Below are positions 19,511 through 49,466 of a DNA stretch of 55,433 bases, one piece after another; within the stretch, counting starts at the first letter, position 1, and every line of letters starts with the position of its first letter. The DNA is taken from positions 1 to 55,433 of the forward strand of contig DASSFC010000020.1 of the NCBI GenBank assembly GCA_035694865.1. The letters are read 5' to 3'. A program made the position numbers and the translations under genes. The notes beneath the pieces were generated by a model. The model had not been told where the DNA came from. It did not search any database and saw only the letters and a program-made list of their open reading frames with translations. This DNA comes from Candidatus Saccharimonadales bacterium. Its GTDB lineage: Bacteria; Patescibacteriota; Saccharimonadia; Saccharimonadales; UBA10212.

Positions 19511-20461
19511 ATGAGTTTTTTAGAGAGCTTGCCAAGGCCGTTTTTTGTGTTGGCACCGATGGATGATGTGACAGATACGGTTTTCAGGCAAATCATCATC
19601 GATTGCGCCAAGCCTGACTTAATGCTTACCGAGTTTGTTAATGTCGACGGCCTGCAAAGCCCGGGCAGGGAACATCTGCTGCATAAGCTCAAGCTGTCAA
19701 AAAAAGAAAAGCCAGTAATTGCCCAGCTGTGGGGATTAAAGCCGGATAATTTTTATAAGACCACCAAGGAATTGGCTGGGATGGGCTTTGAGGGGGTAGA
19801 CCTTAATATGGGCTGTCCGGTAAAGACTGTTATTAAAAACGGTGCCTGTGCGGCTTTGATAAATAACAGAGGTCTGGCAGGCGAGATAATTGATGCGACG
19901 GCCGAAGCGGCAGGGGATACCCTGCCCGTCTCTGTTAAGACGCGGGTTGGATTTACAACGGTAGACATGAGCTGGATTGAATTCTTGTTAAATAAAAAAA
20001 TACTTAACATGTTAAGTATTCATGCCCGGACGGCCAAGCAAATGTCTAAAGTCCCGCCCGATTATGATTTACTTGGTCAGGCCGTCCAGCTTCGTAATTC
20101 CCTGGCGCCCTCTACTCTAATTGTCGGTAATGGCGACATTATGAACCGGGCCCACGGCGAAATAATCGCTAAAAAATACGATTTGGACGGGGTAATGATC
20201 GGCCGCGGCGTTTTGCATGATCCATTCGCGTTCGCCGCGGCCAGCCCGTGGCCGGAGTGGGGCAAAGACCAGCGGCTGGGATTATTTAAGAAGCACATCG
20301 AGCTGTTCATTGAGACCTATAAGGAGGCCGAACGAAAATTCGAACCACTGCGTAAATTCTGCAAGCTGTATATTAATGGCTTCGAAGATGCATCCAAAAT
20401 GCGGGAATCATTCATGCATACAAATACTGTCGAAGAAGCACTCAAATCACTGACAGCCTAG
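19511..20461 (+). CDS. dus: tRNA-dihydrouridine synthase
   Basis: LAPMDDVTDTVFR, NMGCP and catalytic-loop motifs of the Dus TIM barrel. Confidence 0.9.
   Translation: MSFLESLPRPFFVLAPMDDVTDTVFRQIIIDCAKPDLMLTEFVNVDGLQSPGREHLLHKLKLSKKEKPVIAQLWGLKPDNFYKTTKELAGMGFEGVDLNMGCPVKTVIKNGACAALINNRGLAGEIIDATAEAAGDTLPVSVKTRVGFTTVDMSWIEFLLNKKILNMLSIHARTAKQMSKVPPDYDLLGQAVQLRNSLAPSTLIVGNGDIMNRAHGEIIAKKYDLDGVMIGRGVLHDPFAFAAASPWPEWGKDQRLGLFKKHIELFIETYKEAERKFEPLRKFCKLYINGFEDASKMRESFMHTNTVEEALKSLTA
19999..20020. repeat. Palindrome motif copy (AATACTTAAC-AT-GTTAAGTATT), perfect 10+2+10, inside dus
   Basis: Read directly; it encodes KILNMLSI. Confidence 0.9.
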
Positions 20462-20484
20462 CAGGCTAGCCATATTCTTTAATT

Positions 20485-21042
20485 ATGAGTAGTATAGCTG
20501 AAGCTTTTTCCACGATTGACCGGGCTAATTTTATCCCTGAAAATTTTAAATATATGTCTGGTGCTGATATGCCGCTGCCGATTGGTTACAGCCAGACTAT
20601 CAGTCAGCCGACCACCGTGGAGATGATGCTGGAATGGCTTGATGCCCAACCCGATGAAAAAGTGCTTGACGTCGGTTCGGGTTCGGGCTGGACAACGGCG
20701 CTGCTGTCGATCATCGTTGGGCCGAAGGGACATGTTTACGCCGTAGAACGGATATCGGAGCTGGTCGAGTGCGGCCGCGAAAACGTTGAACGACTCGGTA
20801 TGAGAAACGTCAGTTTTCATCAGGCGGGTAAAGAATTCGGTCTGCCGGCCGAGGCACCATTTAATCGGATTTTAGTCAGCGCCTCGGCCGATAAGCTGCC
20901 CCAGACCCTCATCGACCAGCTTAAACCTGGTGGCAAGCTGGTTATACCAGTCCATAATTCGATTTTTGAGATTTATAAAAACCCGGACTGCGGAATCGAA
21001 TCAACTGAGCATCCGGGATTTGTCTTCGTGCCACTACTTTAA
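20485..21042 (+). CDS. pcm: Protein-L-isoaspartate O-methyltransferase
   Basis: QTISQPTTVEMML and VLDVGSGSGWTTALLS motifs. Confidence 0.9.
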   Translation: MSSIAEAFSTIDRANFIPENFKYMSGADMPLPIGYSQTISQPTTVEMMLEWLDAQPDEKVLDVGSGSGWTTALLSIIVGPKGHVYAVERISELVECGRENVERLGMRNVSFHQAGKEFGLPAEAPFNRILVSASADKLPQTLIDQLKPGGKLVIPVHNSIFEIYKNPDCGIESTEHPGFVFVPLL

Positions 21043-21118
21043 TGGTGGGGGCGCCTGGATTTGAACCAGGGACCAATCGGTTATGAGCCGACTGCTCTAA
21101 CCACTGAGCTACGCCCCC
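21043..21118 (-). tRNA. tRNA with CAT anticodon, probably tRNA-Ile2 (lysidine-dependent), alternatively elongator Met
   Basis: The cloverleaf folds cleanly with a G1-C72 pair. The D arm, variable region and T arm (TTGGTCCCTGGTTCAAATCC) resemble E. coli ileX more than metT. Confidence 0.9.
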
Positions 21119-21121
21119 GCC

Positions 21122-21137
21122 AACAGAGGTAATTATA
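21122..21137 (-). promoter_or_regulatory. Conserved tRNA promoter block TATAAT-TACCTCTGTT (minus strand)
   Basis: The -10 hexamer lies 13 nt upstream of the tRNA 5' end. The same block precedes five other tRNA units. Confidence 0.6.
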
Positions 21138-21155
21138 GCGTATAATGAGCTTTAG

Positions 21156-21611
21156 ATGTTCGACAAAATCCAAACATTACTCAATAGTAAAAAGACCAAG
21201 CAGTTGCTCGAAATACGCAATATCGGCCTCTATATATTTGGCATCGTTGTATTAGCGATTGCCTGGAGCGGCGCTAAGACCGTACAGAGTAATTACGAGC
21301 TGCAAAAGAAAATCACAACCCTGCAGCAGCAAAACGTCGTTTTATCGCTGGAGAACCAGAATAACTCTTTGCAGAACCAGTATTATCAGACCCAGCAGTA
21401 TCTTGAACTTTCAGCGCGGCAAAACCTTGGTTTAGCTGCGCCCGGCGAATCTGTCTTATTAGTTCCGCAAAGCACGGCCCTAAAATATATCGATCCTTCT
21501 ATCGGTCAAAATTCAAGCCAGTCGGCACCGCCTGATACGCGGAAAAGCTATGTAAAGAACCTGGAAGCCTGGCGTGATTTTTTGCTTGGCCGCAAGTCCG
21601 CAACAGATTGA
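21156..21611 (+). CDS. Septum formation initiator (FtsB/DivIC-like)
   Basis: N-terminal TM, a Q/N-rich coiled coil, then ELSARQNLGLAAPGESVLLVP, typical of the family. Confidence 0.65.
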   Translation: MFDKIQTLLNSKKTKQLLEIRNIGLYIFGIVVLAIAWSGAKTVQSNYELQKKITTLQQQNVVLSLENQNNSLQNQYYQTQQYLELSARQNLGLAAPGESVLLVPQSTALKYIDPSIGQNSSQSAPPDTRKSYVKNLEAWRDFLLGRKSATD

Positions 21612-21636
21612 CAAACACCATTTAACAGATTAGAAT
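21608..21636 (+). promoter_or_regulatory. Promoter TTGACA-17 nt-TAGAAT for tRNA-fMet
   Basis: Hexamers at 21608..21613 and 21631..21636. The tRNA starts 17 nt after the -10 box. Confidence 0.6.
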
Positions 21637-21652
21637 ATTGATTCGGTAGTAA

Positions 21653-21727
21653 CGCGGGGTGGAGCAGCGGCAGCTCGCATGGCTCATAACCATGAGGTCG
21701 CAGGTTCGAGTCCTGCCCCCGCTACCA
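21653..21727 (+). tRNA. Initiator tRNA-fMet (CAT), CCA encoded
   Basis: CGCGGGG 5' end with a C1xU72 mismatch and an A11:U24 pair, both initiator hallmarks. Anticodon loop CTCATAA. Confidence 0.9.
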
Positions 21728-21739
21728 AGAGCTATTGTA

Positions 21740-21772
21740 AAAGACCCGGAAATAAATCCGGGTCTTTGTTTG
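21740..21772 (+). terminator. Rho-independent terminator (AAAGACCCGG-aaataaat-CCGGGTCTTT-GTTTG)
   Basis: A 10-bp perfect stem followed by a T-rich tract, directly after tRNA-fMet. Confidence 0.75.
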
Positions 21773-22114
21773 CAATCAGACTGCGTATCGTCTCAACCTT
21801 CTAGCGGTACGCCTAAACCTCCGTTTCTCAAAGAAACTGGTTGTCAGAAGTTCGGCATCCATTTCAGCTAATGTTCCACTGTATAGACTCTTTTCCCTCG
21901 GTTCATTTCTATGTGATAAATAAGCTTGGTCATGATGCCTAAAGCTGTTGTCGTAGTTGTTTTTGGTGTAAGTATGGGACATTTTTGTTGCCTTTCTTGA
22001 CTTAAACTTTATCGAACAATATCCGGCAATTTAGCAACATCCTCCTCCAAATGACGCCCCTATTCATGTCGACTAGATAAGCATAAGTATAGCTATCCGT
22101 ACTTATATAGTATG

Positions 22115-22128
22115 TGTGAACCATCACA
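22115..22128. promoter_or_regulatory. Inverted repeat TGTGA-N4-TCACA about 35 nt upstream of the first Crp/Fnr gene
   Basis: Read directly. The arms equal CRP half-sites, but the spacing is 4, not 6. Confidence 0.3.
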
Positions 22129-22161
22129 TCTTTTAGAGCCTACTGATTATATAGTTAGTAC

Positions 22162-22845
22162 ATGACTACAAGTATGCTGGCGGTTTTGCCAATCCGAAAA
22201 ACTGATGACGAAAGTATTGTGGCCCACTTTAGTGATGGGTCCAGCATGAAATTCTCAAAAAACGAAGGCCTAATACATGCTTATGAGGAACCTCAAGGGG
22301 TGTACCTGATTAAATCTGGGTTTGTTAAAGCATATTCCATATCAAGAAATGGTAGCGAAAATTTATTGTTGATCCATCAGGCCGGTGATTTTATACCGCT
22401 ACCTTGGGCCTTGGACGGGGAGCATACTACAGGCTTACGCTACGAAGCTATGAGTGACGTTAACGTTCTGAGAACGTCTAAGGATAAGCTACGCAGTGCA
22501 TTGGGTGATAATCCTTGGCTAGCCCAACAAGTAATGAGTCAGACCGTAAGCATGCTCGGTTTATATACTCAAAGAATACAAACTTTGGAATATAGGACAG
22601 CCCGAGGCAGGGTTATTTCGGAGTTGATACACTTGGCTGAAAGGTTTGGGAAAACTGGAGAAAAGGAAATTCTTATTAACGCCCCAATAACGCATCAAGA
22701 TATTGCAGATTCAATCAATATGACCCGGGAGACAGCCAGTAGAGCTTTAGAGTTACTCTTCGACGAAGACTTATTGGGCCAGGACGACCACTTTTTTACA
22801 GTGAAGGGATTGAACAAAATGTATAAGGCGCTTGACGCTGCTTAG
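22162..22845 (+). CDS. Crp/Fnr family transcriptional regulator (paralog 1)
   Basis: cNMP-binding-type beta barrel (GVYLIKSGFVKAY) and C-terminal HTH ITHQDIADSINMTRETASRALELL. Confidence 0.8.
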   Translation: MTTSMLAVLPIRKTDDESIVAHFSDGSSMKFSKNEGLIHAYEEPQGVYLIKSGFVKAYSISRNGSENLLLIHQAGDFIPLPWALDGEHTTGLRYEAMSDVNVLRTSKDKLRSALGDNPWLAQQVMSQTVSMLGLYTQRIQTLEYRTARGRVISELIHLAERFGKTGEKEILINAPITHQDIADSINMTRETASRALELLFDEDLLGQDDHFFTVKGLNKMYKALDAA

Positions 22846-23047
22846 CCTGTCCCTGTGGCTAGATTAAACTAACGGGCTAGTTTCTCCTGATAAGCTCTTC
22901 CATCTGCTTAACTCTGCCAAGATAACGTTCCAATTCGAATGGACTAGGGCTACCAAGTTTAAATAACAGATACGGATTGGCAAGAACGCTAATTCGTATT
23001 TTTAATTCATCCGGTTATTTAGGTACCAGTTCTTCTAGGTATGTACC

Positions 23048-23305
23048 TCATTTTTCGGAACGGATTTTAATCATGGTCCGTAAATTTGTGAGGTAGGAAA
23101 TAGGGTTTACTTTAGGATGTCCTCGCAGATACTCAAGGTGCTTTTCTTGAAAGGTTATGAGTCGTACAGATATGCCATCTTCCTTTACCAGGCTCACCCG
23201 AGTATCGAGCTCAGAGTCGTTTTCCATCAGAATGAGCTCCTGCCTAATAGCATCCTCTCCTAGCTGTGCGGCTTTGACAGGTAGTTCCCAATCCCGGCGG
23301 TTCAT
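23048..23305 (-). CDS. Hypothetical 85-aa protein
   Basis: ORF only; low GC and no motif. Confidence 0.4.
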   Translation of the reverse strand: MNRRDWELPVKAAQLGEDAIRQELILMENDSELDTRVSLVKEDGISVRLITFQEKHLEYLRGHPKVNPISYLTNLRTMIKIRSEK

Positions 23306-23371
23306 ATTACTTAACTTTAAGTTGCTTGGGCTTCTTGATTTCTTTACGGCCTCTGTCTTTTGGCATGATTA

Positions 23372-23689
23372 TTACCTTCGGCGTCCGCCGCCATATCCGC
23401 CCTGACTGTTCCCGTGCCCTCTCAAACCGCTCGGTCGGTCTTCCCTGGGCCTGGCTTCGTTAACAGATATCTTACGCCCGTCCAGCTCTTTTTCATTCAG
23501 CTGCTTAATAGCTTCCTTAGCTTCGTCTTCGGAAGACATTTCTACGAACCCGAAACCCTTGGACTGATTTGAAAACTTATCCAATATTACAGATGCTGAC
23601 ACGACTGTACCCGCAGTTGAGAAAAAGTCGTTAAGTTGACTATCGTTAACACTATAGGCAAGTCCGCCTACATATAATTTAGTTGCCAT
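23372..23689 (-). CDS. RRM-type RNA-binding protein with RGG/Gly-rich tail (paralog 1)
   Basis: RNP-2 LYVGGL and RNP-1 KGFGFVEM. The C-terminus reads RGHGNSQGGYGGGRRR. Confidence 0.85.
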   Translation of the reverse strand: MATKLYVGGLAYSVNDSQLNDFFSTAGTVVSASVILDKFSNQSKGFGFVEMSSEDEAKEAIKQLNEKELDGRKISVNEARPREDRPSGLRGHGNSQGGYGGGRRR

Positions 23690-23818
23690 TATTACTCCTT
23701 GTTAATTCGGAGTATCTGGCAATTCCAGTGAGCTGCTCTCCAAACGTCCTTAAATAAATCTAGAACTATCTACATACAGTTAAAGCAGCTTTTTCTAGTA
23801 ATATAAGTTTACCATTTT

Positions 23819-23834
23819 TTGAGTTTTACCTCAA
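23819..23834. promoter_or_regulatory. Palindrome TTGAG-N6-CTCAA in the divergent RRM/cupredoxin intergenic region
   Basis: A 5-N6-5 geometry like Crp/Fnr-family sites. It lies about 130 nt from both start codons. Confidence 0.25.
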
Positions 23835-23961
23835 GTTCCACCAGTACATCTAAAAGTGTTCAGTTAAATATGCAACATGGTATCCAGTTCATCCTGGAAT
23901 CAGCTCCTGCTCAGGAACCTATGATAGTAAAGTAAGTATTACAAATTCTTAGGAGGGGAAA

Positions 23962-24384
23962 ATGAATAAAGCAATCATAGCAATAGTAATCGTTATAATC
24001 ATAGCGGCAGGCGGGTGGGCTATATTTGGCAGGGGAAATAAATCGAATAATTCAATTTATGGTTCATCCAATAAAAATACTGCCCCAGTTAGTAATCAAT
24101 CTAATAATTCGGCTAGCCAAAGCCAGGGGACGGGTTCTGTTAGCATCCAGAACATGATGTTTACGCCGTCTCAAGTAACAGTTGCTAAGGGGGCTAAAGT
24201 AACCTGGACCAATAATGACAGCGTAACCCATACTGTAGTAGATGATTTGTCGAACGTTGGAGGACCAAATAGCGGCGATATTGCGCCTGGTGCGACCTAT
24301 AGCTTTACATTCAACAAGACCGGCTCGTATCAATACCATTGCAGTATCCACCCTTCTATGCGCGGAACAATAGTAGTAAGGTAA
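23962..24384 (+). CDS. Membrane-anchored cupredoxin (plastocyanin/amicyanin-like blue copper protein)
   Basis: N-terminal TM. Type-1 Cu ligand pattern: H (VTHTV) ... C-x2-H-x4-M (YHCSIHPSMRG). Confidence 0.8.
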   Translation: MNKAIIAIVIVIIIAAGGWAIFGRGNKSNNSIYGSSNKNTAPVSNQSNNSASQSQGTGSVSIQNMMFTPSQVTVAKGAKVTWTNNDSVTHTVVDDLSNVGGPNSGDIAPGATYSFTFNKTGSYQYHCSIHPSMRGTIVVR

Positions 24385-24515
24385 GCTTCCAATTGGAATG
24401 ACCAGGCAATCATTTTGCTTATGGTTAAATAAATGCCGCTAGCTTTGTATAGTTAATCGTAATTGACGCCGCTTTTTTGCGGCAGTATATTGTGGAAAAG
24501 GCCGAAATAAGGAAA

Positions 24516-24989
24516 ATGATAAAAATTAAATATCTAAAACTGAATAAAAAGGGCATCACTCAAATCCTGGCTCCACTAGCCTTTGTCGTAATCTTTGCTA
24601 TTGTTGGCAGCATTGTGCTTCTGAAAAGCCACGCAGCGACAAGCAATAGTAATGTAACCTGCAGTGCTAGTGCCAGCCCTAACCCGGTAGATTGGAATTA
24701 CAATTTTCAAGTTAAGTTAACCATCCATAACGGCAAAAGTGTCTATTTTACCCCTTTTGTAGGTTATAACATCATCTATTACACTCCCACTAGCTGGTAC
24801 GGGGGCGGTACTGCAACACAATTCAATATGAATGCAATACCACCGGGTGGGTCCGAGTCATATTATTTTACTAAGCAACTGCCAAAGCCGGACGTTAAAA
24901 TGGTCATCAGTTTTTCAGTCAAATGGGGACAAACCTCGACTACCTACGCAGCTCGCTGTTCGGTAACCATAAATCATAAAATCTTGTAA
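24516..24989 (+). CDS. Hypothetical secreted/anchored beta-rich protein (157 aa)
   Basis: I chose the internal ATG preceded by AAGGAAA. The signal/anchor ILAPLAFVVIFAIVGSIVLLKSHA is followed by a Ser/Thr/Tyr-rich domain. Confidence 0.5.
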   Translation: MIKIKYLKLNKKGITQILAPLAFVVIFAIVGSIVLLKSHAATSNSNVTCSASASPNPVDWNYNFQVKLTIHNGKSVYFTPFVGYNIIYYTPTSWYGGGTATQFNMNAIPPGGSESYYFTKQLPKPDVKMVISFSVKWGQTSTTYAARCSVTINHKIL

Positions 24990-25065: not shown

Positions 25066-25743
25066 TTAGTCTTGCGTAAGACCCCACAGGTTAAGGGTTA
25101 TCGGTTCGCTGAACTCATGGCTTAACTTTTCTACGTCATTGATTAAGATGTATTTTCCGGAATGGCTAATGATGCCGAGTTTTTCAAGATTTTCAATCTC
25201 GCGACTGACAGTTTCCCGGGCCAGATTAATCGATTGGCTGATAAGTTCATGGGTTAAGGGCGCTTTTATAATTATGGTTTTGCCTTGGTGCTCACCAAAC
25301 CGGCTGGCTAAGAACATCAGCCGGTAGGCTACCTTTTCTGACGCCGTCTTATATTCTAAGTTGTCCAGCCTGTCTGCAAAAACGTAAAATTGTTCGGCCA
25401 GCTGCTTTAATACATCGGTGGCAGCGCCGGCATTATGTTTTATAAACCTCAAAAAATCTTGTTTAGGGACCTCAGTCACCTCTAGTTCGGACAAAGCTTC
25501 GTAGAAGACGCGCCGCAAGATGTCATTAAAAGCCCATATCAACGGAAAAATTTCACCGGTTTTATAAATTATATGGACATAATGGTTGCCGTCATCGCTA
25601 ATCGAATAAACTCTTACGAAGCCCTTCCGGACAATAACTACGCCGGATGGCTCTTCGCCCCTCATAACAATTTCTCCGGCCGAAAACTTCCGTTGCCTCC
25701 CTGAGTCAAAAAATTCCGTCAGTCCTAGGTCAGTTATAGCCAT
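25066..25743 (-). CDS. Crp/Fnr family transcriptional regulator (paralog 2)
   Basis: Beta-barrel sensor (GVVIVRKGFVRVY) and HTH LTHELISQSINLARETVSREIENL. Confidence 0.8.
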   Translation of the reverse strand: MAITDLGLTEFFDSGRQRKFSAGEIVMRGEEPSGVVIVRKGFVRVYSISDDGNHYVHIIYKTGEIFPLIWAFNDILRRVFYEALSELEVTEVPKQDFLRFIKHNAGAATDVLKQLAEQFYVFADRLDNLEYKTASEKVAYRLMFLASRFGEHQGKTIIIKAPLTHELISQSINLARETVSREIENLEKLGIISHSGKYILINDVEKLSHEFSEPITLNLWGLTQD

Positions 25744-29017: not shown

Positions 29018-29344
29018 GTATTAGTTCCTTATTAATTCTTACTAGGCACGACCCTTATTGTCTGGATTTGAACTCTTGCACCGAGGGCCGAACATTCCTC
29101 ACCAAGAACAGATAAGCTCCTAATAGCGTAAGTAAACCACGAAACTAGAGTTAAAGCAACCAAAAACAAGTTGACAGTGGCCGCTGGCCTAAGGTTTAAT
29201 CTTAAGCAGGTTAAAAAAACAAAAACAAAAAGGACAAAGTAATGCCGCAGTTAGCATATATTGTATTGCCGACCACGGACGAGCAAATCTTAAAGCTCGA
29301 TCCGGTTTTGGACGAAGCCTGAAAGCGCTCGTTTAAGGAGGTGT

Positions 29345-29377
29345 AACAGATGTGATTATGGTATAATCACATCTGTT
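29345..29377 (+). promoter_or_regulatory. Perfect 15-bp inverted repeat (AACAGATGTGATTAT-ggt-ATAATCACATCTGTT) enclosing the extended -10 TGGTATAAT of tRNA-Met
   Basis: Read directly. TATAAT at 29362..29367 is followed by CACATCTGTT, a variant of the tRNA promoter block. Confidence 0.6.
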
Positions 29378-29385
29378 ATTTTTAG

Positions 29386-29462
29386 GCCAGGGTAGCTCAG
29401 TTGGTTAGAGCACAGGACTCATAAGCCTGCGGTCGGCGGTTCGAATCCGCCCCCTGGTACCA
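29386..29462 (+). tRNA. tRNA-Met (CAT), probably elongator; CCA encoded
   Basis: Good cloverleaf. The TAGCTCAGTTGGTTAGAGCACA...CTCATAA arm resembles E. coli metT. It has a G1.U72 wobble and an A31.G39 mismatch. Confidence 0.88.
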
Positions 29463-30912: not shown

Positions 30913-31797
30913 ATGAAGGCTAGTTTGCCAGAGGGCAAATATGTGCTGGCTGTGTCGGGCGGGGTTGACTCCATGGTATTACTTGACTTGTTAAGTAATT
31001 TACGAGGAGTTGATTTGGTGATGGCGAATTTTAATCATGGCATTAGGGCTGATTCTGATGAAGATGAGAAGCTAATGGCTGTGGCGGCCAGCCGGTACGG
31101 CTGGCCGCTGGAGATTGGACATGGCAAGCTTGGCCCAAAGTCCAGTGAAGAAACATCCCGTCGGGCGCGCTATCAATTTCTTGAAGTCATCCGCATAAAG
31201 CACCAGGCTACAAAAATTATTACAGCCCATCATCAAGATGACTTGATTGAAACAGCGCTGATTAACATCTTAAGGGGGACCAACCGCCGCGGACTATCGG
31301 CCATCGCGGATAACACTAAGGTCTTACGGCCGCTGCTGAATGTCTCAAAGACAGAAATAGTTAAGTACGCCCGTCGGCATGGTTTAGCTTGGCGAGAGGA
31401 CAGCACAAACCAAAGCCCCGACTATCTTAGGAATTATATCCGTCTCGAAATCACCCCCAAGCTAAACGGCCATCAAAAAAAAGCTTTAATTGGCAGCCTG
31501 GCTAAAATCAAACAACTGAATTCGGAAATCGATGAGCAAATCAGGAGTCTGGGATTACTTATTAGGCCCAAAAAAGATATTGATCGCCAACTTTATGCCA
31601 GCCTGCCCGACAAAATCGCTGATGAGCTACTAGTTTATTGGCTGCGGGCTGGGCAGATGGGCGAAATTGACCGGAATGAGGTAAGCCGGCTTAAGCTGGC
31701 GCTAAAAACCGCCAAACCTGATACCCAGCACACTGTTAAAGGCTCTAACCAGCTGGTCGTAAAAGCCAGTACAGCCGGCTTTAAAGCAACCTCTTAG
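30913..31797 (+). CDS. tilS: tRNA(Ile)-lysidine synthase
   Basis: PP-loop VAVSGGVDSMVLLDLL, and the conserved position upstream of ftsH. Confidence 0.88.
   Translation: MKASLPEGKYVLAVSGGVDSMVLLDLLSNLRGVDLVMANFNHGIRADSDEDEKLMAVAASRYGWPLEIGHGKLGPKSSEETSRRARYQFLEVIRIKHQATKIITAHHQDDLIETALINILRGTNRRGLSAIADNTKVLRPLLNVSKTEIVKYARRHGLAWREDSTNQSPDYLRNYIRLEITPKLNGHQKKALIGSLAKIKQLNSEIDEQIRSLGLLIRPKKDIDRQLYASLPDKIADELLVYWLRAGQMGEIDRNEVSRLKLALKTAKPDTQHTVKGSNQLVVKASTAGFKATS
30978..30999. repeat. Palindrome motif copy (ATTACTTGAC-TT-GTTAAGTAAT), 9/10 arms, inside tilS
   Basis: Read directly. It overlaps the PP-loop-adjacent codons VLLDLLSN. Confidence 0.7.
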
Positions 31798-34807: not shown

Positions 34808-35410
34808 ATGGAACCAACTGAAAATCCCAGCCAGCCGCCGGCTGCGCCGCCTCCTCTGAGGGGCATTTCCAAAAATGTTCATGAAGACATGCTGGAGCCG
34901 GGCGAATGCGTGCTGACAGTTGTCCACCGCTCTTTGGTCGGCCTGGCTGGTATCTATATCGTAGCGATAGTTGCTCTGGCTGCAATCTTCGGGCTGTTTA
35001 TTAGCATGTCGCCTGGCACCTTTGATACATCAAGCACTAACATTTCACCAGCTCTCAGCGCTGCTATGGTGCTGGGCGCGATCCTGCTGGTACTAATTTT
35101 GTTTACGGCGACTTACGTTTATCGGCAAAGCCGCCTGCTAGTGACCGACAAAAGCCTTGTCCAGGTCATGCAAAAGACATTATTTATACGTAAAGCCTCA
35201 CGCTTGAGCATGTCTAATGTGGAGGACGTCAACGAAGAGCAGAGAGGTATTTTGGCCAGCATCTTTAACTACGGCACTTTGACGGTCCAGACGGCTGGTA
35301 CTGAAGATAATTTTATCTTCACACTGTGCCCGAACCCGGCTGGCCTGGCCGACAGGATTATAGAGGCCCGCCAGGCCTACGCTAAATCACTCGAAGAAGA
35401 AACAAAATAA
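34808..35410 (+). CDS. Membrane protein with bacterial PH domain (bPH_2/YdbT-like)
   Basis: Two TM helices followed by LVTDKSLVQV...NYGTLTVQTAG, a pattern typical of bPH_2. Confidence 0.55.
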   Translation: MEPTENPSQPPAAPPPLRGISKNVHEDMLEPGECVLTVVHRSLVGLAGIYIVAIVALAAIFGLFISMSPGTFDTSSTNISPALSAAMVLGAILLVLILFTATYVYRQSRLLVTDKSLVQVMQKTLFIRKASRLSMSNVEDVNEEQRGILASIFNYGTLTVQTAGTEDNFIFTLCPNPAGLADRIIEARQAYAKSLEEETK

Positions 35411-35413: not shown

Positions 35414-35453
35414 CCAGGAATAAATACTTAACTAGTTAAGTATTTATTCCTGG
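35414..35453. repeat. Palindrome motif copy, extended: perfect 19+2+19 (CCAGGAATAAATACTTAAC-TA-GTTAAGTATTTATTCCTGG)
   Basis: Read directly. It lies between convergent genes, and its right arm covers the last three codons and the stop of 35444..35749. Confidence 0.95.
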
Positions 35454-35749
35454 AAGGGATTATTGCGGGCTTGCTCAAACAATGTATGCACGCTCGTATT
35501 GTTCTGTTCAAGTGACTGAATCTGGTCAACGGCGCCCTTATCGATTTTCGGTATGGAATTGGTGATGGTGACCTGCTGTGAAGCATCGGGCTCGGCGTTG
35601 GCAAAACGGTTGATTTTAAAGACGACAAAAATGTAACACAGCAGCACAATCAACAGAGCCGCGAAGACCATATGTTTGCCGAACCGCTTTGTGAAATTGT
35701 TTATAAACGGGCCGAGCTTTATTGATTTTAAATCTATATTGGAGTTCAT
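35444..35749 (-). CDS. Single-pass membrane protein, last gene of the pilus operon
   Basis: ATGA overlap with the pilO-like gene; one TM helix and no motif. Confidence 0.5.
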   Translation of the reverse strand: MNSNIDLKSIKLGPFINNFTKRFGKHMVFAALLIVLLCYIFVVFKINRFANAEPDASQQVTITNSIPKIDKGAVDQIQSLEQNNTSVHTLFEQARNNPFQE

Positions 35750-42646: not shown

Positions 42647-42647
42647 T

Positions 42648-44447
42648 TTAATGTTCGGCAGTTACCCTCATTATTTCTTCCAGGGTCGTCTGACCCTGCA
42701 GAGCCTTTATAAGTCCGTCGGTCTGCATCGTCACCATACCTTCTTTGACGGCTTCGTCTTGGATGGTTTCGCTGGTTGAACCGCTGATGATATGTCTCTG
42801 GATAGCCGGGGTTATAGGTAACACTTCATATACGCCGAGCCGACCTTTAAACGAGGCGGCACCAGCTTCGCCCTTCATTCGCCATAGCCGGCTGAAGCTG
42901 GTGCCGGTACTGGACGGCTCGGCGTGGGCCACAGCCGAAGTACTGCTTAGGACTTGCTCCATCTCGGACTTTATATAATCCTCCTCAAACTTATGTATCC
43001 GGGCCATGTCTTCATCGGAATTAATGTTAAAAGCGGCGCGAATCCGTTTGACTGTGGCTTCGTCCGGCCGGAATATCTCAGTACTTTCCGGGACTAATTT
43101 TCGGACCAGCCGCTGGGCAACAACTGCCCGGACTGTACTGGCGATTAAGAATGGCTCGATACCCATATCCAGTAAACGCGGCAGGCTGGTCGCTGCATTA
43201 TTGGTATGCAGAGTAGAAAAAACCAGATGGCCGGTCAGGGCTGCCTGGACCGCCAGATTAGCCGTTTCTGAATCCCGGATTTCTCCAACCATAATGATAT
43301 TCGGGTCCTGGCGCAGCAGGGCCCTCAGGCCGTTAGCGAAGGTCATACCGGCTAGGGGGTTGACCTGGACCTGGTTGACACCCGGGATTTTATATTCGAC
43401 CGGATCCTCGACAGTACTGATATTTACCGATGGCTGGTTCAGCCGGCTCAGGATGCTGAATAAACTGGTAGACTTACCCGACCCGGTCGGACCAGTAAAC
43501 AAAATCATACCGTGCGGGCTGGTGAGGCCATGCTCCAGGCTCTCGAGGTTAGTGCCCCAAAAGCCCAAATCTTTCAGACTGCTCGGCTTGCTTGATTCGT
43601 TTAAGATACGCATCACGACCTTTTCACCATCAACTATCGGCAGTGTGCTGACACGCAAGGCGTACTCGCCGCTGCCAAGGGTGACCTTAAAACGGCCGTC
43701 TTGCGGGGCGCGGCGCTCGTCAATCTTCAAGTTAGATAAAATCTTGATGCGGCTGACGAGCGCCGCGACTATCTTCTTTGGCAGCTGGTTGGTCTCGCGC
43801 AGCTGGCCATCGATACGATAGCGCACCGAAACATATTCCTCGCGTGGTTCGATATGTATATCGCTGGCGCCTTGTTTGATGGCATATTCGATAATCAGAT
43901 TGACTGTTTTGGCGACCGGGCTATCCTCGGCCACATCAGCCTCAGATACTTCCTCTTCTGTCGGCCCGGTACTGTCACTTTCGGCGATAACATCGGTCAA
44001 CTCGCTGCCGATATTCGAACGGTACTGGTCAATCGCCTGTTGGATATTGGTATGGGTAGCTATGTAAACCTTTATGTTGCTGCCGAGCTGTTTTTGTAAG
44101 AATGAAAAAGCCTGGACATCGTCAGGGTCTTCCATGGCCAGCAGCCGGGTGCCGTCTTGGGAAATATCAAACAAAACCGAATTATATTGCCGGGCGATAT
44201 GCTCTGGAATCAGGGTCAAGACTTCTTTGCGGATATTTTTAGGAATGATTTCGACGAATGGGACTTCGATCCGGGCGGCGAACAGCCGCGTCAAATCCGC
44301 TTCAGGCAGTAGGTTGTCTTTAATGACCAAATCCTGCAGCGGCTGCTTATCGGTTTTTTGTTCTTCGAGGAGCTTGTGGAGCTGTTCGTCGGTGACCTTG
44401 CGGCTCTCTTTAAGCAATCCAATAACTAGAGCGTCGCTAATACGCAT
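42648..44447 (-). CDS. pilB: Type IV pilus extension ATPase PilB (GspE family)
   Basis: N-terminal GSPII_E_N-like domain, Walker A GPTGSGKST, and Asp and His boxes. Confidence 0.93.
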   Translation of the reverse strand: MRISDALVIGLLKESRKVTDEQLHKLLEEQKTDKQPLQDLVIKDNLLPEADLTRLFAARIEVPFVEIIPKNIRKEVLTLIPEHIARQYNSVLFDISQDGTRLLAMEDPDDVQAFSFLQKQLGSNIKVYIATHTNIQQAIDQYRSNIGSELTDVIAESDSTGPTEEEVSEADVAEDSPVAKTVNLIIEYAIKQGASDIHIEPREEYVSVRYRIDGQLRETNQLPKKIVAALVSRIKILSNLKIDERRAPQDGRFKVTLGSGEYALRVSTLPIVDGEKVVMRILNESSKPSSLKDLGFWGTNLESLEHGLTSPHGMILFTGPTGSGKSTSLFSILSRLNQPSVNISTVEDPVEYKIPGVNQVQVNPLAGMTFANGLRALLRQDPNIIMVGEIRDSETANLAVQAALTGHLVFSTLHTNNAATSLPRLLDMGIEPFLIASTVRAVVAQRLVRKLVPESTEIFRPDEATVKRIRAAFNINSDEDMARIHKFEEDYIKSEMEQVLSSTSAVAHAEPSSTGTSFSRLWRMKGEAGAASFKGRLGVYEVLPITPAIQRHIISGSTSETIQDEAVKEGMVTMQTDGLIKALQGQTTLEEIMRVTAEH

Positions 44448-44518
44448 ATGCTTAAGTATAGAAGGAATCCATAAAAGTTTACATACATTAACTTGAGCAA
44501 TTTCTAAACTGTTGAGGT

Positions 44519-44527
44519 TGGTATAAT
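44519..44527 (+). promoter_or_regulatory. Extended -10 element TGGTATAAT upstream of recA
   Basis: It lies 34 nt upstream of the recA ATG. No good -35 box is visible. Confidence 0.45.
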
Positions 44528-44560
44528 ATAAGTAGCAATTTAGTGGAGTTTGGAGGAGTA

Positions 44561-45580
44561 ATGGCAGAGAGAAAAGTTAAAGACGCCCCGGTATCCAGCG
44601 GTAAGTCACAAGCCCTGGATTTAGCAGTTGCCCAGATAGAAAAGCAGTTTGGCAAGGGCAGTATCATGCGCCTGGGTGAGGCCCATACTGTTACTGTAGA
44701 AACTATACCCAGTGGCTCGATCGGACTTGATTTAGCCTTAGGGGGCGGTATTCCCAAAGGCCGGATCATAGAGATTTACGGACCGGAAAGTTCTGGTAAG
44801 ACCACTGTTTGCTTGCACGCTGTCGCTGAAGTCCAAAAGTCCGGCGGCACAGCCGCTTATGTCGATGCCGAGCACGCACTTGACCCGGCCTATGCTAAAC
44901 GCTTAGGAGTAGACACTGATAAGTTATTGATAAGCCAGCCGGATAGCGGCGAACAGGCTTTGGAAGTAGTCGAAACATTGGTGCGCAGCAACGCTGTCGA
45001 CATCATCGTCGTCGACAGCGTTGCTGCGCTGGTCCCCCAGGCCGAAATCGAAGGCGATATGGGCGATGCCCATATGGGTCTGCAGGCCCGCCTGATGAGC
45101 CAGGCCCTGCGCAAGCTCACAGGTGTAATTAACCGCTCCAAGACTACAGTTATCTTTGTAAACCAGCTGCGTATGAAAATCGGTGTCATGTTTGGCAACC
45201 CCGAGACCACTACCGGGGGTAACGCTCTCAAGTTTTACGCCAGCGTCCGTATGGACATCCGCCGCATCAGCCAAATCAAACAGGGCGACCAAGTCATCGG
45301 CAACCACGTCCGCGTCAAAGTCGTTAAAAACAAGGTGGCACCGCCATTCCGCGAAGCCGAATTCGATATAATGTACAACCAAGGCATCAGCAAAGAAGGC
45401 GACCTTATAGACCTGTCCGTTAACCACGGGATAGTCGAGAAGTCAGGCGCCTGGTACGTCTATAAAGGTGAAAATATTGCCCAGGGCCGTGAAGCCGCCA
45501 AGCGATACCTGGCCGAGCACCCCAAAGTTTACGACGAGATCGCCAAAACCACTATCGAATCTGCCCAAGCCGCGCAGTAG
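44561..45580 (+). CDS. recA: Recombinase RecA
   Basis: I chose the ATG after the GGAGGAG SD. Motifs: Walker [10 protein letters not shown], with loops L1/L2 conserved. Confidence 0.97.
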
Positions 45581-45589
45581 AATAGTCCT

Positions 45590-46045
45590 ATGACCGGTCT
45601 AAACCACGCGGTTACGGGGGCGCTGGTCGCAGCAGTGATTGATAAGCCGATTTTAGCTTTGCCGGCGGCATTGCTAAGCCATTTTGCGGCCGATGCTATA
45701 CCACATTGGAACTACGAACTTAAGCCGCATATCGCCCGCCGCCAGGTTGTCATACTTGCTGACTTGGTCTTAAGCTTGGCTCTGCTGCTGATACTTGCTT
45801 TGACCGTCGATGCTAGGCCATGGCTAATAATTGGTGGCGGATTGTTGGCTATATTGCCGGATACGATGTGGTTAAGATTTTTTATAACCGGCCGGCCGGC
45901 AATCCACGGCAGCCCCAAGCGGTTTATAAACCGGCTGCGCAAATTCCATTTCTGGATTCAGTGGAGCGAAACTAGCCGGGGACTGTTCATAGAAACATTA
46001 TGGTTTCCGCTGATGCTGCTGCTGATTTATCAAACCCATCAATAA
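45590..46045 (+). CDS. Membrane protein, possibly DUF457/YdjM-like metal-dependent hydrolase family
   Basis: Four TM helices with the His/Asp pattern NHAVTG...SHFAADAIPHW...ILPD. Placement between recA and recX. Confidence 0.4.
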   Translation: MTGLNHAVTGALVAAVIDKPILALPAALLSHFAADAIPHWNYELKPHIARRQVVILADLVLSLALLLILALTVDARPWLIIGGGLLAILPDTMWLRFFITGRPAIHGSPKRFINRLRKFHFWIQWSETSRGLFIETLWFPLMLLLIYQTHQ

Positions 46046-46049
46046 CCGT

Positions 46050-46661
46050 ATGAAAATCACCTCCATAAAACAGCAGGTCAAGAATCCTGAGAGAGCTAGC
46101 ATTTTTGTCGACGGCAACTACGAATTTTCGCTTAGCCTGGATGAGCTGGTTAAGTACAAGCTTAAGAACCATGATGAGATGGATAAGGCGGACATCAAGA
46201 AATTCAAGAAAATCTCTGCCGATGGCAAATTACGGGCCAGGGCGCTGGAATGGCTGATGAACCGGCCGCACTCCGAGCGCGAATTCCGGGACTATCTTTA
46301 CCGTAAAAAAGTTGAACCGGAGCAGATAGATGCGCTGGTAAGCGAATTCACTAAAAATAGCTACCTGGATAATCTCAAATTCGCGGCTTGGTTCACCGAG
46401 CTACAGGCCCGGCGGGGCAAAAGCGACCGGGCTATTAGGTCTGAGCTGTTCAAAAAGGGCATTAGCAGGGAAGTAGCAGACGAGGTCTTAGAAGAGGAAG
46501 CAGGGGACGAAGCTCAGCGGTTAAAGGCGATGATTGAAAAGAAACAAAAGCTCAGCCGCTATAAAGGTGACCCGGAAAAACTGGCAAAATACTTAACAAG
46601 TCAAGGATTTTCCTGGCAACTGGTCAAACAGGAATTATTTGCCAGGCGCGAAGATACTTAA
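46050..46661 (+). CDS. recX: RecA regulator RecX
   Basis: N-terminal IFVDGNYEFSLSLDELVKYKL followed by three helical repeats (ALEWLMNRPHSEREFRDYL...). Confidence 0.8.
   Translation: MKITSIKQQVKNPERASIFVDGNYEFSLSLDELVKYKLKNHDEMDKADIKKFKKISADGKLRARALEWLMNRPHSEREFRDYLYRKKVEPEQIDALVSEFTKNSYLDNLKFAAWFTELQARRGKSDRAIRSELFKKGISREVADEVLEEEAGDEAQRLKAMIEKKQKLSRYKGDPEKLAKYLTSQGFSWQLVKQELFARREDT
46587..46610. repeat. Palindrome motif copy, degenerate (AAATACTTAAC-AA-GTCAAGGATTT), 9/11 arms, inside recX
   Basis: It shares the 13-mer ATACTTAACAAGT with the copies at 46654 and 49209. Confidence 0.65.
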
Positions 46662-46675
46662 CAAGTTAAGTATCT
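46652..46675. repeat. Palindrome motif copy, perfect 11+2+11 (AGATACTTAAC-AA-GTTAAGTATCT)
   Basis: Read directly. It contains the recX TAA stop and overlaps the TAG stop of the convergent gene 46674..47198. Confidence 0.95.
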
Positions 46676-47198
46676 AGGCAGCAGCGATTGGCGCGTTGGC
46701 TAGCTCCTCAGCCCCGGCCATAATTTCTGTATCCCGAACCAGGATATACTTATCGGTTACTTCAAGGATTTGCTCACGGTCGATTATGAGTGTGTCCTCA
46801 GCAGTCAGTACTTTATGAAGCGGTTTGGCGACATACAGTTTTTGGACAAAGAGCCCGTCGTTATAGCTGAAGTCGCTGACTTTACCCAGTTTCTGGCGTT
46901 TTGTGCGGACCAGCTTGTCCATCAGTTCGAATTTTATATCCAGAATTTCTTTGTGGCGGACCAAATCCGCAGGGTCACTCAGGGCTTCCTCATTATTGAC
47001 CGCTAAGCCAGTCGGCATAGTTTCGCGGACGTCTTCGGCCAGCAGAACCTCACGCTTACCACCAGCTGCCGTACACCACCAGCCCAATATCTTCAAATTA
47101 TGCGGGTTAATCACTGGCTGCGCCGCAATGGCAATCTGTGTACCGGTACGCAGGCTCATAACCGGCCGGTTTCGTAGCGAACTGCTCAGCATCAACAT
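46674..47198 (-). CDS. Hypothetical protein, possibly PRC-barrel domain-containing
   Basis: Two repeats with a PRC-barrel-like pattern (RPVMSLRTGTQIAI... and KLGKVSDFSYND...). Weak call. Confidence 0.4.
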   Translation of the reverse strand: MLMLSSSLRNRPVMSLRTGTQIAIAAQPVINPHNLKILGWWCTAAGGKREVLLAEDVRETMPTGLAVNNEEALSDPADLVRHKEILDIKFELMDKLVRTKRQKLGKVSDFSYNDGLFVQKLYVAKPLHKVLTAEDTLIIDREQILEVTDKYILVRDTEIMAGAEELANAPIAAA

Positions 47199-47276
47199 AC
47201 TTTTCTTAGTATAAGCTTCGCCAAAATAATCCGCTACTGCTTGCGTTTACTGAAGATTAGCTGATAATTGGATTAA

Positions 47277-48647
47277 ATGAAAAAATATTTCATAGCTATA
47301 GTCCTTACGCTTAGTTTTGGATTCGCTATTTGGGGGTTTGGCGACTTGCGATTAGCAGAATCTGCTACTACCAGTCCGCAAATCATAATTGCCCAGATTA
47401 AAATCACCAGCAGTAATGGTCAGTTTATTACCCTGTACAATAATTCAAATTCTATCATCGACTTAAGCACCATCCAGCTCCAATACTTTAATAATTACGA
47501 CCTGCTCAAAGCTACCACCGGTAAACTTATCAGCCTGAGCGGCAAAGTACCACCGCACGGTTATGCCGTGATAGATGATGGACCAATCCAGGCCTGTTAC
47601 CAGATGACGGTTAATTCGGTTTCATTAGGGCTGTCTTCTACGGCCGGCTTTGTCCAGGTATCGCATTTCTTTGGCACCACTTCGCCGCAATTCATAAGCA
47701 CCTTAGATGATTATGTCGGCTGGAGCAAAACATCTGCCAGCGGCGCTCAGACTCTACCAGGCAGTACCAGTGCCTTTTTACAAAGGCAGGCTCCGGGCGG
47801 TGGCCAGGACTACTCAAAGATAGTTATTCCCGGCGCCGGGACCTGGACGTCTGTCAGCCAGCCGGACGGTTCCACGCCATGTGACGGTTCAACATCGGCC
47901 GGTGTTGCAGCCGGTGGTAATAAGCTGGCTACCAGCTCTGCACCGGTACCCTATTCGACCGCTGTGGTCGAAGCCGCCTCGACTTTCGCAATTCCGGATA
48001 GCGATGCCGGACTGGCGGCGCCGCAGATTTCAGAAGTACTGCCCAACCCGGCGCCGCCAGTTACCGATGCTGATGGCGAATTTATCGAGCTATACAATTC
48101 AAATAGCAGCCAATTTGATTTGAGCGGCTTTAGTCTGCAAACCGGAACCACTACATTTCATAAATACACTTTTCCTGATGGAACTTATATTGCGCCACAT
48201 CAATTCGTGGCATTTTACTCGGGTGACACTGGTCTTAGTCTCAGCAACAGCGACGGTCAGGTCAAGCTTCTCGAACCGGGCGGCAACGTCTTAGGTAAGA
48301 CCGATGAATATACCAATGCCAAAGATGGCTATGCCTGGGTGCCAGTTGATGGCCTGTGGCAATGGACCACCACAGCGACTCCAAATGCGGCTAACATCAT
48401 TACTACGCCACCGCTTGCTAAAAAATCAGCCAAAACTACAGCCACTTCTAAAAAGAAGTCATCGAATGGTGCAGTTGCCAGTTTATCCTCGTCTAATTAT
48501 CCGCCTAGCGGAACTGCTCCAGCTAACTTGCATCCGGCCATACTTGCCGGCATCGGCGGATTAGCCGTAGTATATGCCCTGTATGAGTACCGGCATGATT
48601 TGGCAAACCAGCTCTACAAGTTCCGCCGATACCGAGAGGCTCGGTGA
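47277..48647 (+). CDS. Surface protein with two lamin-tail (LTD) domains and a C-terminal TM anchor
   Basis: Signal/anchor at the N-terminus, LTD signatures IAQIKITSSNGQFITLYN and ISEVLPNPAPPVTDADGEFIELYN, and a C-terminal hydrophobic helix followed by a basic tail. Confidence 0.65.
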   Translation: MKKYFIAIVLTLSFGFAIWGFGDLRLAESATTSPQIIIAQIKITSSNGQFITLYNNSNSIIDLSTIQLQYFNNYDLLKATTGKLISLSGKVPPHGYAVIDDGPIQACYQMTVNSVSLGLSSTAGFVQVSHFFGTTSPQFISTLDDYVGWSKTSASGAQTLPGSTSAFLQRQAPGGGQDYSKIVIPGAGTWTSVSQPDGSTPCDGSTSAGVAAGGNKLATSSAPVPYSTAVVEAASTFAIPDSDAGLAAPQISEVLPNPAPPVTDADGEFIELYNSNSSQFDLSGFSLQTGTTTFHKYTFPDGTYIAPHQFVAFYSGDTGLSLSNSDGQVKLLEPGGNVLGKTDEYTNAKDGYAWVPVDGLWQWTTTATPNAANIITTPPLAKKSAKTTATSKKKSSNGAVASLSSSNYPPSGTAPANLHPAILAGIGGLAVVYALYEYRHDLANQLYKFRRYREAR

Positions 48648-49077
48648 GCTGCTGGGTAGCCAGCTGAAGGGTGGCGATATAATCGAACTGCGCTCCGATT
48701 TGGGCGGCGGCAAGACTACCTTTGTCCGCGGTCTGGCCAAAGGTGCCGGCAGCCAAGATAGGGTCTCCAGCCCGACCTTCACGCTCAGCCGCGTTTATAA
48801 AACCAAAGATTTTGAAATTTACCACTTTGATTTTTATAGGCTCGATGACCCGGGCATATTAAAGGATCAACTGGCCGAAGCGGTTCAGGCTAAAAGCGTA
48901 GTTGTGGTCGAATGGGCAGGGATTGTTAAGGATGTTTTGCCGAAAGAACGAATCACAATCGAATTCAAGCCAACTGCCAACAGCCCGGATGAGCGTGAAG
49001 TAGCGTTTACATACTCCGCAAACTACCGGCCGGCGATAGTTTTTGCCGAAAGTAATTACGGGGACGAGCGGCCATGA
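48574..49077 (+). CDS. tsaE: tRNA t6A37 biosynthesis ATPase TsaE
   Basis: The SDLGGGKTTFVRGL P-loop and YHFDFYRL motif. The start is uncertain (ATG at 48574, 48583 or 48595), and every option overlaps the LTD gene end. Confidence 0.8.
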   Translation: MPCMSTGMIWQTSSTSSADTERLGELLGSQLKGGDIIELRSDLGGGKTTFVRGLAKGAGSQDRVSSPTFTLSRVYKTKDFEIYHFDFYRLDDPGILKDQLAEAVQAKSVVVVEWAGIVKDVLPKERITIEFKPTANSPDEREVAFTYSANYRPAIVFAESNYGDERP

Positions 49078-49466
49078 AAATATTGGCATTACGAACGGAT
49101 AAACCAGAAGCTGAACTCTATATTTTCGACAATCAGAAGAAGCTAACCGAAATAAAATGGGAGGCCCATCGCCAATTAGCGGAGACCCTCAATTCAAAAA
49201 CGGATGAAATACTTAACAAGTCAAGTATTTCTTATAAAGATCTTGACGGTATAGCGATTTTTAAAGGGCCGGGCAGTTTTACCGGTCTTAGGATTGGTCT
49301 GAGCGTGGCAAATGCCCTGGCCTTCGGCCTGGGCGTGCCAATCGTCGCCTCCAGCGGCGACGATTGGCTTAATGACGCAATCAAGAAACTAGAGGCCCAC
49401 CAAAATGACAAAATCACCACACCAGAATATGGTTCGCCTGTGCACGTAACCAGACCAAAAAAATAA
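49074..49466 (+). CDS. tsaB: TsaB-like protein, N-terminal domain only (130 aa)
   Basis: ILALRTD...GIAIFKGPGSFTGLRIGLSVANALAFGLGVPIV. ATGA overlap with tsaE. Confidence 0.75.
   Translation: MKILALRTDKPEAELYIFDNQKKLTEIKWEAHRQLAETLNSKTDEILNKSSISYKDLDGIAIFKGPGSFTGLRIGLSVANALAFGLGVPIVASSGDDWLNDAIKKLEAHQNDKITTPEYGSPVHVTRPKK
49206..49231. repeat. Palindrome motif copy (GAAATACTTAAC-AA-GTCAAGTATTTC), 11/12 arms, inside tsaB
   Basis: Read directly; it encodes EILNKSSIS. Confidence 0.85.

Follow-up and report, generated by a model that had tools for sequence, protein, structure and literature searches.

E. coli MarR and SlyA are dimeric winged-helix self-repressors that often occur together with an efflux or transporter gene, and their operators, marO (TTGCC-N2-GGCAA) and the SlyA site (TTAGC-AA-GCTAA), share with the palindrome studied here a 5-2-5 core geometry. 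In streptococci and lactococci, the box TTAACNNGTTAA / TTAACYRGTTAA is the operator of the zinc-responsive MarR-family repressors AdcR and ZitR and overlaps the -35 and -10 boxes (PMC6372160, PMC11580457). Here we analyze a palindrome that recurs in a 55,433-base stretch of DNA from a Candidatus Saccharimonadales bacterium (assembly GCA_035694865.1, contig DASSFC010000020.1; the whole stretch is hereafter the window) and in many related genomes. An earlier note, written by a model from the letters of the window, had likened this palindrome to the DNA uptake sequences (DUS) of Neisseria and the uptake signal sequences (USS) of Pasteurellaceae. Those signals share with it a clade-wide distribution, short length, tolerance only in certain frames and at gene ends, and inverted copies that form hairpins, but they are asymmetric words occurring about once per kb and none is a regulator's operator.

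The palindrome is strongly non-random and under selection at the DNA level. We consider it moderately probable that it is the recognition site, as predicted from a copy in the regulator's own promoter, of a MarR-family protein conserved in Saccharimonadales, and not a DNA-uptake tag.

The palindrome is a fixed dyad

On the two strands of the window, which has a G+C content of about 49%, the 9-mer ATACTTAAC occurs eight times. Dinucleotide shuffles give 0.33 occurrences and none of 100 shuffles reaches eight, while Markov models of orders 1-5, trained with the sites masked, predict 0.36-0.67. Searching with the 20-mer ATACTTAACNNGTTAAGTAT at up to three mismatches yields six sites where 0.04 would be expected. 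These are six dyads of the form ATACTTAAC-NN-GTTAAGTAT, located as follows.

20000..20019: perfect dyad ATACTTAAC-AT-GTTAAGTAT (18/18 positions) in dus (19511-20461), frame 0, encoding ILNMLSI; with the flanking A/T it is a 10+2+10 palindrome at 19999-20020
30979..30998: degenerate dyad TTACTTGAC-TT-GTTAAGTAA (15/18 positions, 3 mismatches) in tilS (30913-31797), encoding LLDLLSN
35414..35453: perfect 40-bp palindrome with the dyad (35424-35443, 18/18) at its center, between convergent genes at 34808-35410 (+) and 35444-35749 (-)
46589..46608: imperfect dyad ATACTTAAC-AA-GTCAAGGAT (2 mismatches) in recX, codons 180-186 (KYLTSQGF), frame 2
46654..46673: perfect dyad (18/18) at the junction of the convergent recX (46050-46661) and an open reading frame (ORF) at 46674-47198 (-), with the recX TAA stop inside the motif; with flanks it is an 11+2+11 palindrome at 46652-46675
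49209..49228: dyad with 1 mismatch, ATACTTAAC-AA-GTCAAGTAT, in tsaB (49074-49466), frame 0, encoding ILNKSSI; its extended arms span 49206-49231

Two of the copies thus lie at convergent gene junctions and four inside genes, with none at a promoter. Pfam analysis identified dus, tilS, recX, tsaE/tsaB, recA, pilB/pilC/pilM and a ComEC-type competence gene, which backs the names that the earlier note had given to the four motif-bearing genes as well as its mention of ComEC, a type IV pilus and RecA. Its six palindromes were all recovered with the coordinates and arm qualities it had reported, its claim that the 9-mer is over-represented holds against both background models, and the 13-mer ATACTTAACAAGT is indeed present three times (46589, 46654 and 49209). 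The solitary half-sites it had listed at 3351, 31360 and 46149 are present too, but the list was incomplete, as a fourth at 23308 had been overlooked; these 8-mers number four against 1.3 8-mer matches expected in all.

The dyad was examined in a motif-unbiased set of 772 kb, composed of 80 loci carrying the RecX N-terminus, 15 exact-protein loci (13 of them around marR) and the window. Here 97 of the 101 ATACTTAAC 9-mers have a partner half at the fixed 2-bp spacing, and the solitary 9-mers, four in number, stand against 5.5-7.5 expected by chance, which argues strongly against an asymmetric signal of the DUS/USS type. Across the window and the recX-centered loci (about 587 kb), the motif and its A7G variant make up 26 of the 38 perfect 9-2-9 palindromes, and the A/T flanks of the dyad are conserved. 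The functional unit is therefore a fixed 9-2-9 dyad and not a single word, and the pairing of half-sites suggests a dimer as reader, a hairpin or the two together.

A variant form, ATACTTGAC-NN-GTCAAGTAT, found in two relatives (L152 and L160), was considered as a lineage-specific dialect and dropped for the simpler explanation that position 7 tolerates A or G. The same change at position 7 is used by marR promoters for the -35 box. In L152 and L160 this tolerance was possibly combined with quasi-palindrome correction.

A copy of the dyad lies in the promoter of a MarR-family gene

Of 44 genes with a start no more than 200 bp downstream of an intergenic copy, eight encode small MarR-like proteins. 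Using these MarR-like proteins in tblastn searches of the relatives' DNA we obtained eight genes, all eight with the motif (0-1 mismatch) 14-45 bp upstream; in three of them the promoter copy was not the site that had triggered retrieval of the locus. Six further MarR homologues were then represented by contigs chosen by length alone, independently of the motif, and all six carry ATACTTGAC-NN-GTTAAGTAT (1-2 mismatches) 12-87 bp upstream of marR and in the same orientation. Every marR gene found in relatives (14/14) has the dyad 12-87 bp upstream, which favors the operator reading; an operator for an unidentified regulator had been among the alternatives offered by the earlier note. The distal half is TTGAC placed as a -35 box in nine of the 14, and seven of these nine show a -10-like hexamer (at least 4/6 of TATAAT) at 16-18 bp. 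By its layout, the marR promoter reads as a classic autorepressed MarR operator. The gene upstream of marR varies (ksgA, DUF1996 or a divergent gene), which indicates that the copy travels with marR and not with the 3' end of a neighbor. Downstream of marR, five of the six contigs chosen by length encode an MFS transporter. A marR gene and its operator are also present in DASTHV, the assembly in which perfect copies were found in the greatest number (at least 10 stretches).

Pfam assigns the main subgroup of the proteins to MarR/MarR_2 above cut-off, and profile matches in the PDB include MepR, SlyA, MarR and OhrR. A database search returned 1,634 homologues, for which the sole organism-bearing source name was Candidatus Saccharimona[…]. 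In a 20-protein alignment with identities to the query down to 21-23%, the predicted recognition helix LGQTEASISRQIK is nearly invariant, matching the invariant DNA motif. Many of these homologues also end in a C-terminal H-x3-C-x7-9-C/H tail. In four related loci (L048, L116, L034 and L118), copies were seen 32-130 bp upstream of NRAMP-like and TauE/SafE-like genes, as judged by eye from the N-termini. The His/Cys tail and the nearby transporters hint at a metal- or redox-responsive regulon. At one marR locus (L203, 4019-7258), the nearby UvrD-type helicase has 1,079 residues compared with 708-734 in others and matches an intein-splicing domain.

The motif is spread across the clade and keeps orthologous positions

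An exact-match search covering one genome per bacterial or archaeal species found the perfect motif in at least 116 stretches from at least 67 assemblies. At least 61 of these assemblies are titled Saccharibacteria, Saccharimonadales, Saccharimonadia, Saccharimonas or Patescibacteria group, and by our own arithmetic about nine chance sites are expected over the whole scanned collection. Two other assemblies, a 'Babeliales' bin and a 'Verrucomicrobiia' bin, have copies of the Saccharibacteria type at orthologous positions. Besides DASTHV, JBEKOJ and JAIFWC each carry a perfect copy in at least 7 stretches. The related DNA stems from Saccharibacteria of soil and groundwater. The motif is thus conserved clade-wide, and its copies are not confined to the window. 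A scan of viral contigs gave two matches, both in contexts unlike Saccharibacteria and at about the chance level by a rough estimate of collection size. The literature searched contained nothing on the motif string or on a MarR regulon in Saccharibacteria.

The density of copies, six per 55 kb in the window, is roughly one per 10-40 kb overall. About 23 further copies with up to three mismatches were found in 0.8 Mb of blocks, not counting the sites that triggered retrieval, and in the long recX-centered loci the 10 kb upstream of recX contains no copy. Copies stay at orthologous positions among relatives whose RecX N-terminal segments are as little as about 61% identical.

The individual window copies differ in how well they are conserved. 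The perfect dyad in dus is also found at the identical dus codon in another species (L047). By comparison, the tilS copy is lineage-specific: six other tilS loci (five distinct sequences) have 9-11 mismatches in the aligned segment, which reads LLD/H-x-LA through other codons, and the copy may be young or decaying. The palindrome at 35414-35453 fills the convergent gap beside the last gene (35444-35749, -) of the type IV pilus cluster. Folded as a hairpin it reaches -24 kcal/mol on both the + strand, where a U-run is missing, and the - strand, where there is a weak one. In a relative (L110), the orthologue of the gene upstream of the palindrome carries a copy at its 3' end. The inner recX copy, at 46589, departs from the perfect form precisely at the point where that form would introduce a stop, with GTCAAG for GTTAAG; it recurs at the matching position in many recX relatives with 2-3 mismatches and with the right half GTCAAGGAT in nearly all. 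Most relatives retain the recX-end copy in the stretch that separates recX from its convergent neighbor, and some have lost it; its position varies from the stop codon itself to about 25-60 nt past it. TsaB of the window has only 130 residues, its Pfam match covers positions 24-86 of a 264-position TsaD-family profile, and the relatives' orthologues are of similar length. In two species whose tsaB has no internal copy, a perfect copy lies directly against the start codon of the gene (L021, 3459-3478; L083, 792-811), so the association may be with the 5' region of tsaB instead of with one exact position.

Copies occupy one reading frame and gene 3' ends

Placement was classified for 124 perfect copies. 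Long ORFs contain 49 of them (about 40%) and the other 75 are intergenic. All 49 in-ORF copies are read in the frame ATA CTT AAC NNG TTA AGT AT, giving ILNxLSI; this is the single permissive frame, because the other two contain TAA on both strands. The motif is therefore not frame-independent, contrary to what the earlier note had concluded from the window copies. The intergenic copies are overwhelmingly pressed to gene 3' ends, often with the stop codon within or abutting the motif. By orientation of the adjacent genes, we counted 26 convergent, 34 tandem and 5 divergent cases, compared with 12, 42 and 12 expected from the number of junctions and 8, 38 and 19 expected from intergenic length (P <= 2e-5). 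The genes that end at a copy are diverse, with 57 singleton families among 79 genes.

Selection acts on nucleotides

The copy in tsaB is common to 17 distinct orthologues, in which the codons GAA ATA CTT AAC are invariant in 15-17 of the 17. Synonymous positions elsewhere in tsaB are saturated, with the major codon taking a share of 0.29-0.87, so that synonymous positions are frozen only in the motif codons. More distant tsaB orthologues have other residues and other codons at this place. Likewise, each of the 62 ILNxLS[IM] peptides in the relatives and the window is encoded by the motif (62/62). These data bear out the view of the earlier note that selection works on the DNA and not on a peptide, and at least the tsaB copy is held by selection at the nucleotide level. 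In RecX the peptide ILNKLSI aligns without indel to LVSEFTK of the window RecX, which implies that this copy arose by substitution and not by insertion.

A proposed mechanism and its relation to known systems

In the model that we propose, a winged-helix dimer of the MarR family would read the 9-2-9 dyad, with core TTAAC-NN-GTTAA and A/T flanks. At marR, the distal half in the form TTGAC would double as the -35 box and bring about autorepression. The six window copies would be extra high-affinity sites of the same protein, found in places where the sequence is tolerated, namely in the stop-free frame ILNxLSI or in the few bases between genes or at gene ends, convergent ones above all. Being symmetric, a dimer bound at such a copy could block RNA polymerase from either direction. 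Dimers at 35424 (the end of the pilus cluster) and 46654 (the end of recX) would then block polymerase at two convergent junctions and insulate convergent or adjacent transcription units, and the copies in dus, recX and tsaB may attenuate or mark their transcription units in a ligand-dependent manner. The same sequence could also fold into a hairpin, in places lengthened to a strong stem. The protein-binding dyad would be the conserved part, and either selection for a stem or quasi-palindrome template switching may have lengthened some of the 3'-end copies. We infer three steps of this model, namely that the same protein sits on the non-promoter copies, that its occupancy blocks transcription and that the regulator is encoded in this genome. 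The non-promoter copies may have a roadblock, boundary or architectural role. That a MarR dimer has been recruited, together with the hairpin, as a genome-wide, sequence-specific, bidirectional roadblock, boundary or architectural protein in the reduced genomes of Saccharibacteria, with its near-perfect dyads as marks of convergent junctions and of certain gene bodies, is an extension that we regard as doubtful.

Comparison with AdcR and ZitR shows likeness in the site and difference in the protein. The half-site TTAAC and the 2-bp center are identical, and the core of every perfect copy is the AdcR/ZitR box itself. In both cases a MarR-family winged-helix dimer is the known or predicted reader, the regulator's own operon has the operator across its -35/-10 region, and the recognition helices are similar (TEASISRQIK vs SQAAVTKAIK). 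However, the Saccharibacteria protein scores 22 bits on NCBIfam NF038251, for which the cut-off is 175, and AdcR and ZitR are absent from its best 60 PDB profile matches. The zinc ligands E41/H42 align to F/K (hhalign to 3TGN, winged-helix part only), and the protein lacks a His cluster at the position of 108-112. The conserved motif measures 20 bp instead of 12, most of its copies lie off promoters, and the gene adjacent to marR is an MFS transporter and not the Adc/Zit zinc importer of the ATP-binding cassette type. Genes downstream of copies include MFS, NRAMP and TauE transporters, and no Adc/Znu importer was seen among the neighbors inspected. Judging from these sequence comparisons, the site resembles an AdcR box, but the regulator is not a member of the AdcR family and the regulon does not appear to be that of AdcR. 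E. coli MarR and SlyA, which are both PDB relatives of the protein, have one or a few degenerate promoter sites, in contrast to the many near-perfect copies described here, which lie mostly in coding sequence or at 3' ends.

Many near-perfect palindromes inside genes are also known for Noc-NBS, SlmA-SBS, RacA-ram and ParB-parS, of which there are tens per genome regardless of promoters. The present copies are like these dyads, each of which is read by a protein from a regulator family; the only link found for the present copies is to a MarR protein, and to our knowledge no MarR protein has a role in chromosome organization. A search of 1.4 Mb of these genomes for canonical parS, at up to 2 mismatches, gave no site, a result that speaks neither for nor against a replacement.

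Evaluation of alternative explanations

Several observations weigh against the operator reading. The marR gene is found neither in the window nor in the recX-centered relatives, and its presence in this genome is assumed. Most copies lie where a classical operator is not expected: about 40% of the perfect ones are in coding sequence, and those between genes favor convergent junctions and are scarce at divergent ones. To neither side of the generic copies are -10-like hexamers enriched at a distance of 16-18 bp, by which we ruled out that these copies act as promoters. Four marR-adjacent 20-kb stretches contain no copy besides the operator itself, indicating that the extra copies vary between lineages. 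A roadblock that is always bound would be costly in essential genes. Finally, palindromy extends past the 20-mer, by at least 5 extra bp in 20 of the 124 copies and by up to 10, with variable sequence; complementarity of the flanks is significantly above that of a permutation control for about 7 bp outward, and a few palindromes, of 36-40 bp, are perfect. The tsaB orthologues of L152, L159 and L160 have 36-bp perfect palindromes within the coding sequence with differing flanks, and those of L152 and L160 also have a compensated change in the core. Such long palindromes count against the reading because a dimer on double-stranded DNA does not require them.

They would be accounted for if the palindrome were driven by structure, as a hairpin of RNA or single-stranded DNA at transcript 3' ends (a terminator, stabilizer or processing site) that an RNA-binding protein may read, with the marR copy as a separate use. 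The 3'-end and convergent placement of intergenic copies fits this explanation, as do the excess of palindromy that survives the permutation control, the stability of 35414-35453 on both strands and the compensated tsaB palindromes. On the other hand, the core alone is weak at -5.4 kcal/mol and U-runs are inconsistent, the loop dinucleotide has no preferred orientation relative to the upstream gene (CUUG vs CAAG; AA 9, TT 8), and most conserved in-gene tsaB copies have an A-C mismatch in the sense RNA. There is no Rfam match at the copies, the gathering scan of the window returning only 9 tRNAs. The invariance of 18 bases over a whole order is not explained by structure alone, and quasi-palindrome template switching could lengthen palindromes without selection, so we judge this explanation unlikely. 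A simple intrinsic terminator was rejected because of the weak stem and inconsistent U-runs; only the - strand of 35414-35453 passes a simple terminator scan.

The preference of the earlier note, an uptake signal whereby the pilus and ComEC would preferentially take up motif-bearing DNA and this bias, together with recombination, would spread copies to all tolerated positions, has a number of points in its favor. Saccharibacteria are naturally transformable and can be modified in this way (PMC10633639), and the window holds ComEC, pilus genes and RecA. The motif is kept across the 61 or more assemblies titled as members of the clade, its copies occupy tolerated places (the one permissive frame, and 3' ends where they often supply the stop), and the many singleton families ending at copies are what drive would produce. 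Nevertheless, this reading fails two defining tests, for the motif is not an asymmetric single-copy word and is not found about once per kb: the dyad is fixed with solitary half-sites at chance, orthologous positions are kept, and the density is about 10-40 times below that of DUS/USS. It leaves the oriented copy in the promoter of a cognate marR without explanation. The transformation study used designed linear cassettes and mentions no uptake signal (PMC10633639), and the literature searched has no link between Saccharibacteria and uptake sequences. We therefore hold an uptake role to be very improbable. Still less credible is a mobile palindrome akin to repetitive extragenic palindromes (REP) or miniature inverted-repeat transposable elements, copied by a hairpin-specific transposase like the REP-associated tyrosine transposases (RAYT). 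A palindromic sequence with many copies at different 3' ends in different genomes would suit it, and in L140, a close relative in which the recX-end copy is missing, the junction is about 12 nt shorter than that of L125. However, mobility is hard to reconcile with the many copies inside genes, the substitution without indel at the aligned RecX site and the stability of orthologous positions; there is no conserved unpaired flank, nothing beyond the dyad is common to the copies, and no transposase (RAYT and IS200/IS605-like included) stands beside them among the neighbors inspected. The suggestion of a restriction-modification or orphan methylation target with core CTTAAC/GTTAAG finds its sole support in the palindromic form. 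Restriction targets are normally avoided and not enriched, a specificity of 18 bases is far past known methyltransferase motifs, and no cognate enzyme gene lies beside the copies examined, so that the chance of this explanation is close to nil.

Two Crp/Fnr-type regulators with a cNMP-binding domain and HTH_Crp_2 are encoded 2 kb apart in the window, at 22162-22845 (+) and 25066-25743 (-). They were considered as readers because the PrfA box has a similar half-site, and were rejected, since the spacing is off by 2 bp and their genes have no copy beside them.

Other features of the window

Two dyads like the controlling inverted repeat of chaperone expression (CIRCE), TTAGCACTC-N9-GAGTGCTAA, lie at 4170-4196 and 4218-4244 (1 and 2 mismatches), directly upstream of hrcA (4245-4949), the first gene of an hrcA-grpE-dnaK...dnaJ cluster; this is the ordinary arrangement of an HrcA heat-shock operator. 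Within recA there is a 19-bp perfect inverted repeat with a 9-nt spacer (44983-45001 / 45011-45029). In eleven relatives, the stretch upstream of recX, the expected place of recA, showed no inverted repeat of at least 13 bp, and the repeat seems to be an accident of codon choice specific to this lineage. Another perfect inverted repeat, of 16 bp (TAACAGATGTGATTAT / ATAATCACATCTGTTA, 29344-29378), lies 8 nt upstream of the tRNA-Met at 29386. Three tRNA-Met(CAT) genes occur within 8.5 kb (21043-21118, 21653-21727 and 29386-29462), with tilS nearby at 30913; presumably they are the initiator, the elongator and the tilS-dependent tRNA-Ile2. Finally, two guanylate-kinase-family paralogues stand side by side at 2750-3436 and 3445-4173.

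Implications

Gene regulation in Patescibacteria, which also go by the name of candidate phyla radiation (CPR), is almost unknown, and a regulator-operator pair conserved across an order-level clade offers a concrete handle on it. The 18-base signature is searchable in any metagenome. The tempting claim of an uptake sequence of Saccharibacteria is removed as unsupported. Regulon models do not predict copies that are under selection in housekeeping genes and enriched threefold at convergent ends. If the doubtful extension to a genome-wide roadblock is true, the boundaries of transcription units would be set by a ligand-responsive DNA-bound protein and not by ordinary terminators, and if the copies are bound, they could show how very compact genomes separate their transcription units.

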